From: Escherichia coli
GTDB lineage: Bacteria > Pseudomonadota > Gammaproteobacteria > Enterobacterales > Enterobacteriaceae
Assembly: GCF_030013595.1 (NCBI RefSeq)
Contig: NZ_CP122768.1
DNA: 64,000 nt
Direction: 5' to 3' (one strand)
Below, one piece after another: positions 6,458 to 24,980 of the stretch. The position numbers were made by a program, and so were the translations under genes. A model generated the notes under the pieces. It was not told the origin of the DNA and did not search any database. It was given only the letters and a program-made list of their open reading frames with translations. The first letter of the stretch is position 1; every line of letters starts with the position of its first letter.

Positions 6458-7300
6458 ATGCATTCACTCCAACGTAAAGTTCTGCGTACTATTTGTCCGG
6501 ACCAAAAAGGTCTGATCGCACGTATTACCAATATTTGCTACAAGCACGAGTTAAATATCGTACAGAACAATGAATTTGTTGATCACCGTACCGGGCGCTT
6601 TTTTATGCGCACGGAACTGGAAGGAATTTTTAATGATTCCACCCTGCTGGCGGATCTCGACAGCGCATTGCCAGAAGGCTCCGTACGTGAGCTGAATCCT
6701 GCTGGTCGTCGCCGGATAGTGATTCTGGTCACTAAAGAGGCGCATTGCCTTGGCGATTTGTTGATGAAAGCCAATTACGGCGGCCTGGATGTCGAAATCG
6801 CGGCAGTTATTGGTAACCACGATACTTTACGTTCTCTGGTTGAGCGTTTCGATATTCCGTTTGAGCTGGTAAGTCATGAAGGATTAAGCCGCAACGAGCA
6901 CGATCAAAAGATGGCGGATGCCATTGATGCTTATCAGCCTGACTACGTGGTGCTGGCGAAGTATATGCGGGTATTAACGCCAGAATTTGTGGCACGCTTC
7001 CCGAATAAGATCATCAATATTCACCATTCATTCCTGCCAGCGTTTATCGGCGCACGTCCTTATCACCAGGCCTATGAACGTGGCGTGAAGATTATTGGCG
7101 CAACCGCTCACTATGTGAATGACAATCTGGACGAAGGTCCAATCATCATGCAGGACGTTATTCATGTCGATCATACCTACACAGCTGAAGATATGATGCG
7201 CGCAGGTCGTGACGTCGAGAAAAACGTCTTAAGTCGCGCACTCTACAAAGTACTGGCGCAGCGCGTCTTTGTTTACGGTAATCGGACGATTATTCTTTAA
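6458..7300 (+). CDS. purU: Formyltetrahydrofolate deformylase
   Basis: 280 aa ORF; N-terminal ACT-like domain plus formyltransferase core (HHSFLPAF motif). Confidence 0.95.
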   Translation: MHSLQRKVLRTICPDQKGLIARITNICYKHELNIVQNNEFVDHRTGRFFMRTELEGIFNDSTLLADLDSALPEGSVRELNPAGRRRIVILVTKEAHCLGDLLMKANYGGLDVEIAAVIGNHDTLRSLVERFDIPFELVSHEGLSRNEHDQKMADAIDAYQPDYVVLAKYMRVLTPEFVARFPNKIINIHHSFLPAFIGARPYHQAYERGVKIIGATAHYVNDNLDEGPIIMQDVIHVDHTYTAEDMMRAGRDVEKNVLSRALYKVLAQRVFVYGNRTIIL

Positions 7301-7381
7301 TCGCCAGCAAAAATAACTGGTTACCTTTAATCCGTTACGGATGAAAATTACGCAACCAGTTCATTTTTCTCAACGTAACAC

Positions 7382-7409
7382 TTTACAGCGGCGCGTCATT
7401 TGATATGAT
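7382..7409 (+). promoter_or_regulatory. tyrT promoter (-35 TTTACA, 16-bp spacer, -10 TATGAT, GC-rich discriminator GCGCCCCGC)
   Basis: Sequence ctTTTACAgcggcgcgtcatttgaTATGATgcgccccgc matches the classic stringently controlled tyrT promoter, about 50 bp upstream of the first tRNA. Confidence 0.8.
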
Positions 7410-7459
7410 GCGCCCCGCTCCCCGATAAGGGAGCAGGCCAGTAAAAAGCATTACCCCGT

Positions 7460-7544
<85 letters not shown>

Positions 7545-7579
7545 TCTCAAGCATTACCTCAAAATTTGAATTACCCCGT

Positions 7580-7648
<69 letters not shown>

Positions 7649-7664
<16 letters not shown>

Positions 7665-8205
7665 TCACTTTCAAAAGTCCGTGAACTCTCAAACGAATCC
7701 GCGATTAAATATTCTGCCCATGCGGGGAAGGATGAGAAGCTTCGACCAAGGTTCGACTCGAGCGCCAGCGAGAGAGCGTGGCCGCAGGCAACGACCCGAA
7801 GGGCGAAGCGCGCAGCGCTGAGTAATCCTTCCCCCACCACCATCACTTTCAAAAGTCCCTGAACTCTCAAACGAATCCGTAATTAAATATTCTGCCCAAG
7901 CGGGGAAGGATGAGAAGCTTCGACCAAGGTTCGACTCGAGCGCCAGCGAGAGAGCGTTGCCGCAGGCAACGACCCGAAGGGCGAAGCGCGCAGCGCTGAG
8001 TAATCCTTCCCCCACCACCATCACTTTTCAAAAGTCCGTGAACTCTCAAACGAATCCGCAATTAAATATTCTGCCCATGCGGGGAAGGATGAGAAGCTTC
8101 GACCAAGGTGCGACTCGAGCGCCAGCGAGAAAGCGTTGCCGCAGGCAACGACCCGAAGGGTGAAGCGCGCAGCGCTGAGTAATCCTTCCCCCACCACCAT
8201 CACTT
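7649..8205 (+). repeat. Three and a bit tandem copies of a 178-bp repeat at the 3' end of the tyrT-tyrV operon (rtT/tpr region)
   Basis: Unit starts at 7649, 7827, 8005 and partial at 8184, each beginning with the tRNA 3'-end-like ccttcccccaccaccatcac; units differ by a few substitutions. Confidence 0.9.
7732..7821 (+). CDS. tpr: Protamine-like small protein Tpr (29 aa) encoded inside first 178-bp repeat
   Basis: ATG 7732 to TGA 7819-7821 encodes [29 protein letters not shown], Arg-rich; matches my recollection of the 29-aa Tpr; paralogous ORFs in repeats 2 and 3. Confidence 0.35.
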
Positions 8206-8286
8206 CCTGTAAATACTCAAAACCTGTTACTCCGAGCTAATTCTACCCAATGGCACCGCGTTTACCGGACCTACAATATCCTCCCC

Positions 8287-8318
8287 TGTAGGTCGGATAA
8301 GCGAAGCGCATCCGACAA
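8287..8318. repeat. REP (repetitive extragenic palindromic) element
   Basis: tgtaggtcggataagcg-aagc-gcatccgacaa imperfect palindrome of the REP type between repeat array and narI. Confidence 0.45.
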
Positions 8319-8339
8319 CTCACCCCGTACCGTGCCCAT

Positions 8340-8364
8340 AAAAAAACCCCGCCGAAGCGGGGTC
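8340..8364 (-). terminator. Rho-independent terminator of narGHJI
   Basis: Minus-strand reading gaccccgcttcggcggggttttttt: GC stem with ttcg loop and T7 run 20 bp after narI stop. Confidence 0.75.
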
Positions 8365-8383
8365 TATGCAAACTAAAATTCGC

Positions 8384-9061
8384 TTAGTGACGAGCGCGCA
8401 CCAGCTGATACTTACGTGTCAGATACTCCACCGGTACGCTCCAGATGTGCACCAGACGTGAGAACGGGAACAGCAAGAATAACGTCATCCCCAGCACCAG
8501 GTGCAGACGGAAGATAAACGCCACACCATCAAGGTGTTGAGAAGCGCCACCGTGGAAGGTCACTACCGACTGCGCCCAGCCAACCAGTTTCATCATCTCG
8601 CTACCGTCCATATGCTGGGCGGAGAACGGAATGGTCAGCAAGCCCAGAGCGCACTGGATAACCAGCAGAGACAGGATCAGGATATCCGCTCCGGTAGTCG
8701 TTGCACGCACGCGTGGGCTGAACAGACGACGTTTCAGCAACAGCACGCCGCCAATCAGACACAGCACGCCGCTGGCACCACCAGCAAACATCGCCATTTT
8801 CTGTTTCACTTCAATCGGCAGCCAGGCTTCATACATCCAGTGCGGCGTCAGCATACCGAAGAAGTGACCAACAAAAATCCCCAGAATACCGATATGGAAC
8901 AGGTTCGACGCCAGGTTCATCCCTTTGCGATCCAGCATCTGGCTGGACGCCGCGCGCCAGGTGTACTGCCCGTAGTCATAACGCAGCCAGCTACCAATCA
9001 GGAAGACCGCCCCGGCTATGTACGGGTAGATATCAAAGAAGAACATATTCAGGAATTGCAT
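8384..9061 (-). CDS. narI: Respiratory nitrate reductase gamma subunit (cytochrome b)
   Basis: 225 aa polytopic membrane ORF, last gene of narGHJI. Confidence 0.96.
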
Positions 9062-24040: not shown

Positions 24041-24445
24041 CAGATATATCTCCTCCGATGACAGAAATCGGGGGAGATAATATAAATTCCTGCTTATTGT
24101 ATTTCTTCATACTACCTGAACAGGTTGTTAATCAGAATTGCGAGCCTGTACCAGAACCTGCACGAAACCACTGCAACAGCTGTTGAAAAGCCGGAATGTA
24201 CTCTTTATTGCAAACATTTCAGGGATGAAGTGAAGATGAATTGAGACGTAGTATCCACACCAAGCCGGCGTTATCCGGTGAGGCGCAATGTTGCGGGGGC
24301 TTTATCCCTGGTGGCATTGGTTGCTGGAAAGAGAAAACCCCCGCACGTTGAGAGGTAAAACCTGACAACAGAACGGGGGCTAATCTTGAACCATCAACAA
24401 TTCAAGAATAGCCGCAAAATGTTGTCATTACAACAAGGCGGCTAT

Positions 24446-24635: not shown

Positions 24636-24980
24636 TCTTTATCTCTTCCACAAGTAAATATTGGCAACCCGAGCTGGAAGCATCATCCAGAGCACTCATG
24701 AAACGACTGTAACAGCTGTTGAAAAACCGGAATGCACTCTTCATTGCATACATTTCAGGGATGAAGTGAAGATGAATTGAGTCGTAGTATCCACACCAAG
24801 CCGGCGTTATCCGGTGAGGCGCAATGTTGCGGGGGCTCTATCCCTGGTGGCATTGGTTGCTGGAAAGAGAAAACCCCCGCACGTTGAGAGGTATAACCTG
24901 ACAACAGAACGGGGGCTAATCTTGAACCAGAACAATTCAAGAATAGCCGCAAAATGTTGTCATTACAACAAGGCGGCTAT

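Follow-up and report, generated by a model that had tools for sequence, protein, structure and literature searches.

Results and Discussion

The repeated DNA downstream of the tRNA-Tyr genes in this Escherichia coli genome carries three copies of the RtT RNA, and it is this RNA, not a peptide reading frame, that is conserved in the repeat units. The short "Tpr" frames found in the same units are real in the sequence but, across strains and species, they behave like accidental by-products and not like genes. The analysis covered a stretch of 64,000 nucleotides (the window), to which all coordinates below refer.

The tyrT–tyrV Locus and Its Repeats

The locus has the textbook E. coli organization (purU, tyrT, tyrV, rttR/tpr, narI) and is already known. 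In the window, the flanking ORFs and annotations gave the order purU, two tRNA-Tyr genes, repeats and narI, with the following features.

7382–7409, plus strand: tyrT promoter-like site, TTTACA-16 nt-TATGAT with TG, then a GC-rich discriminator (10 of 12 matches)
7460–7544, plus strand: tRNA-Tyr(GTA), tyrT equivalent (ARAGORN; Rfam tRNA, 53.4 bits)
7545–7579, plus strand: tyrT–tyrV spacer, 35 nt
7580–7664, plus strand: tRNA-Tyr(GTA), tyrV equivalent (ARAGORN; Rfam)
7646–7823, plus strand: repeat unit 1, 178 bp (TRF; unit alignment; composition)
7824–8001, plus strand: repeat unit 2, 178 bp (TRF; unit alignment)
8002–8180, plus strand: repeat unit 3, 179 bp, with one extra T (TRF; unit alignment)
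8181–8205, plus strand: terminal 0.14 unit, 25 bp, a fourth copy of the tRNA 3′ end followed by TCACTT (TRF; unit alignment)
7571–8203, minus strand: three overlapping YchS-like antisense ORFs (7571–7870, 7689–8024 and 8021–8203)
8344–8365, minus strand: narGHJI intrinsic terminator

The promoter-like site matches the position of the K-12 tyrT promoter region, and the two tRNA genes delimited by ARAGORN are identical in sequence. A terminator-like site was looked for on the plus strand 3′ of the repeats, and none was seen. The YchS-like ORFs, which lie in the same antisense frame as K-12 ychS (b1228), are incidental opposite-strand readings of the repeat.

TRF was run on the window and on K-12, whose array measures 178 bp × 3.14. 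In the window it returned a 178-bp period, 3.1 copies, 96% matches and no scored indels over 7646–8205, an array that starts inside the distal tRNA-Tyr gene and lies between purU and narI. The last 19 nt of tyrV (7646–7664) double as the first bases of unit 1, and this sequence, AATCCTTCCCCCACCACCA, opens every unit. TRF and the unit alignment thereby agree with the first-pass annotation of this DNA, which had described three tandem units after tyrV, each opening with a copy of the tRNA 3′ end; the common length of 178 bp that it gave holds for units 1 and 2, but not for unit 3. Each 178-bp unit has two parts, a C-rich, G-poor segment of 78 nt (35–36% C, 8–10% G) and a G-rich, structured core of 100 nt (39–40% G).

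Conserved RtT RNA in the Repeat Units

Searching the window with the RtT model of Rfam (RF00391), whose gathering threshold is 45 bits, gave three matches.

7711–7842, plus strand: RtT RNA copy 1, 131.6 bits
7889–8020, plus strand: RtT RNA copy 2, 137.1 bits
8068–8199, plus strand: RtT RNA copy 3, 131.2 bits

All three copies cover model positions 1–130 of 130, sit in the tRNA-Tyr 3′ trailer and end with a copy of the tRNA 3′ end (...CCACCA). The rttR annotation of K-12 runs exactly from 7 nt past tyrV to the next CCA; by those coordinates, the equivalent 171-nt RNA would span 7672–7842 in the window. In other strains, the RefSeq label at the same place reads "RtT sRNA, processed from tyrT transcript". 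As cited in PMC4986893, PMC3318445, PMC2965389 and PMC7542023, Bosl and Kersten (1991) described rtT RNA as the processing product of one tyrT-operon repeat unit and suggested for it a role in the stringent response. The first-pass annotation made no mention of RtT/rttR, the established product of these units.

A 10-bp helix closes the core by pairing GGGGAAGGAU with AUCCUUCCCC of the next tRNA-end copy. This helix is near-invariant across 60 distinct units, and the centroid fold of each window unit contains it. An extended structure of six helices was 97.4% paired in the 60 units, which come from many genera, and for the Rfam RtT structure 98.3% of the cells were paired. Compensatory changes in the 60 units amounted to 9 pairs and 59 cells, a result matched by none of 500 shuffles, and the slid controls gave at most 5 pairs and 8 cells. 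This covariation support is concentrated in two hairpins, the other four helices barely varying, and the Rfam and RNAalifold structures disagree in the central pairing. Folding z-scores against shuffles were unremarkable for the three window units (–0.5 to –1.1), and such scores are uninformative for this G+C-rich RNA.

A derivation of the core from the T-arm of tRNA-Tyr was also considered. The sequence CTTCGA..AAGGTTCGA matches tRNA positions 53–70, but 76 of 2,000 shuffles equalled its score; the match is only suggestive, and the derivation was rejected.

The same data bear on the idea that the units are functionless repeated DNA, left by duplication or by integration/excision at the tRNA-Tyr 3′ end and kept by recombination or gene conversion. 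The direct tRNA 3′-end copies bound each unit as integration scars would, E. coli strains carry from 0 to 5 copies (those with zero copies being viable), and the folding energy is unremarkable. RttR overexpression, moreover, produced no phenotype in one screen (PMC4606813), and a function in trans is therefore not established. However, in many genera of the Enterobacterales the 100-nt core keeps a mean column identity of 85% and always lies beside tRNA-Tyr, whereas the 5′ spacer part of the unit is far more variable, and there are the compensatory changes in two hairpins. Retention at such an evolutionary depth would be unlikely without constraint, and we regard mere relic DNA as distinctly improbable. 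A tRNA-Tyr gene stands directly 5′ of 110 of 137 related arrays, whose size ranges from 1 to 6.

Mini-ORFs and Their Variation in E. coli

Each unit of the window contains one mini-ORF related to K-12 tpr (b1229), which has 29 codons.

7732–7821, plus strand: mini-ORF 1, 29 codons, the C17G variant of Tpr (...ERG..., GGC at 7780)
7910–7999, plus strand: mini-ORF 2, 29 codons (...ERC...), identical to K-12 tpr
8089–8163, plus strand: mini-ORF 3, cut to 24 codons, ending in RPEG and then TGA

The spans of the first two and the lengths of all three are exactly those claimed by the first-pass annotation, and in the alignment of the three units the four mutations it had listed lay where it had placed them. 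One is the loss of an in-frame upstream ATG, which is kept at 7720 (unit 1) and 8077 (unit 3) and reads AAG in unit 2 (7898–7900). For unit 3, the TGA after RPEG (R25stop, CGA to TGA, 8161) and S8A (8110) had been recognized, but E15K (GAG to AAG, 8131) had been missed. The one-residue difference between ERG and ERC is likewise real, but its polarity had been reversed: unit 2 has the canonical K-12 form of Tpr, and the variant belongs to unit 1. The GGC of unit 1 is the derived allele, because T occupies this site in 58 of 60 related units and unit 2 equals K-12 tpr. Outside the ORFs, the units differ at four further places (columns 26, 37, 58 and 59 of the unit alignment).

In principle, such differences could stem from mistakes in sequencing or assembly, with the repeat collapsed or mis-resolved. 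The 534 bp of 96%-identical repeats are hard for short reads, and the exact three-unit combination of the window is absent from complete E. coli genomes, the best match reaching 99.2% over 7300–8400. Nevertheless, each allele recurs in independent complete genomes: the exact 90-nt ORF regions were found in 178 (unit 1), 2,028 (unit 2) and 440 (unit 3) E. coli complete-genome records. Furthermore, the whole of unit 2 has exact copies in several other E. coli genomes, and the unit-3 allele occupies the last position in other strains too. An assembly artifact, which the first-pass annotation had itself raised as a threat to its reading, is hardly credible on these grounds, and we rejected it.

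At this locus E. coli genomes carry 0, 1, 2, 3, 4 or 5 RtT units and one or two tRNA-Tyr genes, natural alleles with 0, 1 and 5 units being of the ECONIH1, JNE181771 and Nord122 types, respectively; the unit variants are shuffled among positions in different strains, and the alleles are arranged as mosaics. These observations support the proposal, already made from the window alone, that the array evolves by point mutation as well as by duplication of units; units are also lost.

Coding Tests on the Tpr Frame

The mini-ORFs could also be taken at face value. Tpr would then be a genuine, young micro-protein of the E. coli lineage and the RtT transcript a dual-function RNA, encoding one to three arginine-rich peptides of 24–33 amino acids, with the unit differences as protein variants. 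Two of the window's three units, as well as unit 1 of K-12, where tpr is still annotated, have an intact 29-codon ORF with an ATG start; about 37% of E. coli records (2,028 of some 5,441) contain the canonical ORF exactly; and E. coli is known to make dual-function small RNAs (PMC8916003 and PMC8915982). In addition, the 29-codon ORF is intact more often in the first, transcribed unit after tyrV than in later units (10 of 15 versus 5 of 18; Fisher p = 0.04, uncorrected for phylogeny), a retention that could reflect selection on the peptide or on the RNA.

Comparison with other species speaks against this reading. Well-scoring units from other Enterobacterales species numbered 155, at 89 loci. 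Of these, 112 have a stop at codon 6; the start column reads ATG in 114 and some other triplet in the remaining 41. Only 8 of the 155 units keep the Tpr frame, and a single one has a 29-codon ATG ORF; the longer ORFs of other genera are frame-shifted. Among the 60 distinct units, the length of the ORF span is off by a non-multiple of three in 37, and the variability at codon positions 1, 2 and 3 (211, 150 and 155, respectively) shows no third-position excess.

Within E. coli, the variable ORF sites at 17 sampled loci comprise 2 synonymous, 11 nonsynonymous and 3 nonsense sites, counts that are compatible with neutrality (p = 0.19) and that reject a 50% synonymous share (p = 0.002). The ORF is intact in 15 of 37 units, no intact copy exists at 6 of the 17 loci (one of them in an O157:H7 strain), and 727 of 5,426 complete E. 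coli genomes have no match to the ORF. At each of the nonsense sites (codons 6, 10 and 25), a C that faces a G in the RNA structures has become U.

No functionally spaced ribosome-binding site with an accessible start was seen on inspection of the sequence. The sole Shine-Dalgarno-like match, AAGGA, runs into the AUG, and every centroid fold places the two inside the 10-bp closing helix. Scans of the peptides identified no Tpr family in Pfam or NCBIfam, and the NCBI pipeline leaves the Tpr ORF uncalled in other strains. The papers that could be searched contain no report of peptide detection.

A reading of the units as carriers of Tpr-like peptide genes, the framing of the first-pass annotation, is at odds with a frame and start that are not conserved, with the lack of purifying selection and with the missing well-spaced Shine-Dalgarno sequence. 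A translated and selected Tpr seems to us quite unlikely.

Proposed Explanation

We consider it highly probable that the tyrT–tyrV transcription unit has its distal, non-tRNA part here, in the form of tandem RtT modules whose ORFs are incidental. Each RtT module would be a unit of 3′ external transcribed spacer of tRNA-Tyr. According to the literature, transcription from the tyrT promoter would pass both tRNAs and enter the array, and tRNA-type processing would free a 171-nt RtT RNA reaching from 7 nt past the tRNA CCA to the next ...CCACCA, in keeping with the K-12 rttR annotation.

Presumably, Rho then stops transcription inside the array; Rho-dependent termination in the tyrT distal region was reportedly described by Kupper et al. 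in 1978 and by Rossi et al. in 1981. A region of this kind should offer, ahead of the stop points, at least 70 nt of C-rich, G-poor, little-structured sequence and no intrinsic terminator. No such terminator was seen on the plus strand, and the 78-nt C-rich segments would, as judged from composition only, suit the loading of Rho.

The 29-codon frames lie inside the structured core with their start codon at the edge of the closing helix, and they would open and close through C-to-U changes that only turn G–C pairs into G–U pairs. Growth, shrinkage and homogenization of the array probably occur by unequal recombination and gene conversion among units and tRNA-end copies, as the population variation suggests. 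The RtT RNA itself has been reported to act in trans, modulating the response to amino-acid starvation.

Two more elaborate scenarios, to which we jointly assign a low likelihood, would give the modules an additional role. In the first, a micro-protein would have arisen in the E. coli lineage when CAA replaced the ancestral stop at codon 6 (TAA in 72% of the units in other genera). An arginine-rich frame of 29 codons would thereby have opened in an abundant by-product of a tRNA operon; the frame would now be polymorphic (open, truncated or absent) and preferentially kept in the transcribed first unit. In the second, the RtT RNA would be a permanently uncharged mimic of the acceptor/T-arm end of tRNA-Tyr, by virtue of a 10-bp helix made with the tRNA's own 3′ strand and of the ...CCACCA tail. 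Such a mimic, if real, could titrate tRNA 3′-end enzymes or the RelA/ribosome sensor, and this would explain the old stringent-response phenotype.

Irrespective of these scenarios, reading the region as a set of RtT modules has consequences for annotation. The K-12 reference still carries tpr (b1229) and the antisense ychS (b1228) as protein genes, while the comparative data indicate that both arise incidentally from reading a repeated module of non-coding RNA. The listing of tpr among the "duplicated, possibly essential" Keio deletions (PMC2824493) is accounted for by the tandem, near-identical copies, and many natural E. coli strains lack the units entirely. The locus also illustrates how a reading frame can be repeatedly opened and closed by substitutions that are silent for RNA pairing, and it offers a natural series of 0 to 5 copies for testing the role of the RtT RNA.

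Comparison with Known Systems

The closest counterpart is the tyrT-tyrV-rttR/tpr locus of K-12 (178 bp × 3.14), which shares with the window the synteny, the repeat period, the 3.1 copies after tyrV and the 19-nt tRNA-end copies; its tpr equals the unit-2 ORF of the window, and the RtT covariance model matches at full length. The two loci differ in the tyrT–tyrV spacer, which in K-12 measures 209 nt and contains a fourth, diverged RtT-like unit of 174 nt, whereas the window has 35 nt and lacks that unit. The ORFs of units 1–3 differ as well, with 29, 5 and 9 codons in K-12 as opposed to 29, 29 and 24 in the window, where C17G (unit 1) and S8A, E15K and R25stop (unit 3) are the changes relative to K-12 tpr.

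Spot 42/SpfP, AzuCR/AzuC and SgrS/SgrT resemble RtT in that a short ORF lies within a structured small RNA. For these three, translation was demonstrated (the two dual-function RNA papers cited above), whereas the RtT frame is not conserved.

With respect to biogenesis, RtT is comparable to 3′ETS-leuZ, since both are stable RNAs processed from the 3′ trailer of a tRNA transcript. 3′ETS-leuZ, which derives from glyW-cysT-leuZ, is a single-copy, Hfq-binding RNA that sponges RyhB and RybB. Its name is listed in the sRNA table of PMC12306157. Unlike 3′ETS-leuZ, RtT is a tandem repeat, and it ends in a copy of the tRNA 3′ end.

Layout of the Array and Its Reading Frames

The repeat array lies in the following setting, each repeat unit being a copy of the RtT RNA (Rfam RF00391).

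6458–7300, + strand: purU
7382–7409: promoter-like site 3' of purU (TTTACA, 16 nt, TATGAT)
7460–7544: tRNA-Tyr(GTA), first of two identical genes
7580–7664: tRNA-Tyr(GTA), second of two identical genes
7646–8205: tandem repeat, as called by Tandem Repeats Finder
7646–7823: repeat unit 1
7732–7821: mini-ORF 1, in unit 1; 29 aa
7824–8001: repeat unit 2
7910–7999: mini-ORF 2, in unit 2; the mini-ORF 1 peptide with C at residue 17
8002–8180: repeat unit 3
8089–8163: mini-ORF 3, in unit 3; 24 aa, then TGA
after 8180: partial unit of 25 bp, at the array end
8344–8365, minus strand: hairpin with a T-run, the narI intrinsic terminator
8384–9061, minus strand: narI

Tandem Repeats Finder gave the array a period of 178 bp, 3.1 copies and 96% matches. 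The units had been described as starting with a copy of the tRNA 3' end, and each does begin with AATCCTTCCCCCACCACCA, which is the final 19 nt of the tRNA, and then reads TCACTT. When the three units were aligned, eight columns showed substitutions and there was a single indel, of 1 nt. A terminator scan of the + strand 3' of the array returned no intrinsic terminator. Between the array and narI there is a REP-like palindrome (taggtcggataagcgaagcgcatccgaca; 8271–8320), followed by the narI terminator.

Our ORF calls placed the three mini-ORFs exactly where the first-pass annotation had them. The reported loss of an upstream in-frame ATG in unit 2 was also borne out, as the codon there is AAG, with ATG kept at 7720 (unit 1) and 8077 (unit 3); so was the shortening of the third frame to 24 aa, by CGA to TGA at codon 25. 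The list of unit differences was correct as far as it went, but overlooked E15K in unit 3 (GAG to AAG at 8131). Furthermore, unit 2 had been regarded as a variant of unit 1, which reverses the polarity: the unit 2 ORF is identical to K-12 tpr and hence is the reference form. Since, in addition, 58 of 60 related units carry T at the position equivalent to 7780 in unit 1, the G found there is the derived allele. Overall, the earlier observation stood apart from this omission and this reversal, while its interpretation is supported only in part.

Dynamics of the Array

Complete E. coli genomes contain 0, 1, 2, 3, 4 or 5 RtT units per locus, with one or two tRNA-Tyr genes; in other genera the arrays comprise 1–6 units, and tRNA-Tyr is directly upstream in 110 of 137. 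The exact combination of units seen in the window occurs in no complete genome (best 99.2%) and neighboring strains are mosaics of the same variants, which fits unequal crossing-over and gene conversion between units. In view of these copy-number and mosaic data, the first-pass annotation was right to see both point mutation and unit duplication at work in the evolution of the array.

The unit alleles of the window are real. Assembly error, which had been raised as a possible source of the unit differences, is ruled out by the exact recurrence of each allele: the ORF regions of units 1, 2 and 3 have exact matches in 178, 2,028 and 440 records, respectively. Several five-unit arrays also contain unit 2 in its entirety, with 100% identity.

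The spacer between tyrT and tyrV differs from that of K-12, being 35 nt in the window (7545–7579) and 209 nt in K-12 (locus L001, 1830–2038, minus strand). What the window lacks is a 174-nt RtT-like unit that K-12 holds between the two genes, a fourth, diverged unit with GTG in the start column and TAA at codon 6. Because the window spacer equals the final 35 nt of the K-12 one, the difference points to a 174-nt indel between two direct tRNA 3'-end copies. Either layout is common among E. coli strains.

The natural strain ECONIH1 (locus L135, 961–1348) carries tRNA-Tyr twice but lacks any RtT unit from tyrV to narI. ST131 EC958 (locus L136, 1661–2853) has one tRNA-Tyr gene and no unit; desaturase-family genes begin 17 nt past the tRNA, where narI would stand, a layout that points to an island or a rearrangement with its junction at the tRNA 3' end.

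Elsewhere in the window, two matches to the rdlD-family antitoxin RNA (RF01813; 84–87 bits; 24332–24397 and 24868–24933, minus strand) are ldr/rdl long direct repeats. The corresponding K-12 locus has three copies, so the copy number of this array may vary too.

Is Tpr a Gene?

To call the units carriers of Tpr-like peptide genes is at odds with their relatives. One genome per bacterial species was scanned for the RtT-core pattern, leaving the start codon and codon 6 unconstrained, and a profile built from the window units yielded 241 units, spread over 119 sequences (the window and 118 further loci). At 89 loci of other Enterobacterales, 155 units scored well; of these, 114 have ATG in the Tpr start column and 41 have GTG, ACG, TTG, GTA, CTG, TCG or TTA there. 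A stop at codon 6 (MRSFD, then TAA) occurs in 112 (72%), and some other units stop at codons 11–17. The Tpr frame is kept in only 8 units and a 29-codon ATG ORF in only one; longer ORFs, as in Pluralibacter, Pseudocitrobacter and others, are in a different frame because of 1-nt indels.

When 60 distinct full-length units were aligned, minor-allele cells at codon positions 1, 2 and 3 numbered 211, 150 and 155, with no third-position excess, and the ORF span departed from 90 nt by a non-multiple of three in 37 units. Neither Pfam nor NCBIfam has a model for the Tpr peptide. The sole Shine–Dalgarno-like bases, AAGGA, overlap the AUG itself. In every window unit, the centroid fold places both inside a 10-bp helix (GGGGAAGGAU/AUCCUUCCCC).

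Within E. coli we compared the window and K-12 with 15 further strains, picked mostly across the similarity ranking; together these 17 loci hold 37 units. The 29-codon ORF is intact in 15 units, and six loci have no intact copy, including an O157:H7 strain and the unit-free ECONIH1 and EC958. The 16 variable sites of the ORF comprise 2 synonymous, 11 nonsynonymous and 3 nonsense changes, a spectrum that fits neutrality (25% synonymous, p = 0.19) and rejects a 50% synonymous share (p = 0.002), so that even mild purifying selection is incompatible with it. The 90-nt ORF is unmatched in 727 of 5,426 complete genomes. Of 10,038 E. coli matches to the tpr/RtT core, 18 are on plasmids instead of chromosomes.

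Two features would be the look of a very young, lineage-specific micro-protein: the ORF is intact in 10 of 15 first units after tyrV versus 5 of 18 later ones (Fisher p = 0.04, uncorrected for shared ancestry), and the CAA allele of codon 6 predominates in E. coli, TAA elsewhere. However, selection on the expressed RNA copy, or shared ancestry, would produce the same pattern equally well, and we consider it very improbable that Tpr is a translated, functional peptide.

Antisense to the units, the window has overlapping YchS-like ORFs of 99, 111 and 60 aa (7571–8203, minus strand). The K-12 annotation ychS (b1228, 91 aa) is very probably spurious, as it is the same frame as these antisense ORFs reading the repeat units. 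An update of the Keio collection (PMC2824493) puts tpr in the group of deletions that 'retain a duplicate', which marked it as a candidate essential gene. That duplicate is trivially explained by the tandem, near-identical units, and the existence of natural strains without any unit means that the tpr sequence is dispensable. Tpr and the antisense ychS are probably not genes, and the evidence against them is what the present analysis adds.

Conserved RNA Structure

We tested six helices, namely the RNAalifold consensus plus one extra 3' hairpin, on the same 60 units. Paired cells amounted to 97.4%, and both-side changes occurred in 9 pairs (59 cells); none of 500 column shuffles matched these values, and slid controls never exceeded 5 pairs and 8 cells. 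The compensatory changes lie in two hairpins (alignment columns 49–66 and 102–115); next to no variation is seen in the GCGUUGC/GCAACG hairpin or the closing helix. The Rfam consensus structure is compatible too (98.3% paired), with variation via wobble pairs only. By folding energy the signal is weak (z-scores of −0.5 to −1.1), so the case for the RNA rests on the comparative data and the literature.

All three E. coli nonsense polymorphisms (codon 6 CAA to TAA, codon 10 CGA to TGA and codon 25 CGA to TGA, the last being the change in window unit 3) are C-to-U opposite G in these structures. They turn G–C into G–U pairs, at little cost to the RNA; such pairing-compatible changes account for a frame that can flicker open and shut at ~95% nucleotide identity.

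Each unit consists of a 78-nt first part (tRNA-end copy and trailer; 35–36% C, 8–10% G) and a 100-nt core (39–40% G). In composition, the C-rich, G-poor segments are what Rho loading sites would be expected to look like, which fits the Rho-dependent stop reported to occur ~225 nt beyond the tRNA CCA. For its 3' strand the closing helix uses the T-stem and acceptor 3' strand of the tRNA itself, and CACCACCA comes next, so the RtT RNA ends like a tRNA; this end would plausibly direct the same 3' trimming. The likeness of the core (CTTCGAccAAGGTTCGA) to a tRNA T-arm is marginal, 76 of 2,000 shuffles scoring equally.

Relation to the Classical tyrT Locus

The array belongs to the classical tyrT locus of E. 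coli, and the feature was already known. Reportedly, Egan and Landy described the 178-bp repeat and Kupper et al. Rho-dependent termination within the repeats, both in 1978, and a 1981 description of the arginine-rich ORF is due to Altman, Rossi and colleagues. From purU toward narI, K-12 MG1655 has the order tyrT, tyrV, rttR, tpr in the corresponding stretch, and its repeat too has a 178-bp period and 3.1 copies (Tandem Repeats Finder). There, tpr (b1229) is annotated as a protamine-like protein, with ychS on the opposite strand, and rttR as the small RNA RttR (b4425, 171 nt), which spans from 7 nt past tyrV to the next CCA, equivalent to 7672–7842 in the window. All window units match RF00391 at full length (131–137 bits; gathering score 45), and RefSeq labels each unit in other strains 'RtT sRNA, processed from tyrT transcript'. 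The statements in which later papers cite Bosl and Kersten 1991 (PMC4986893, PMC3318445, PMC2965389, PMC7542023) describe rtT RNA as set free in tRNA processing and tied to the response to amino-acid limitation.
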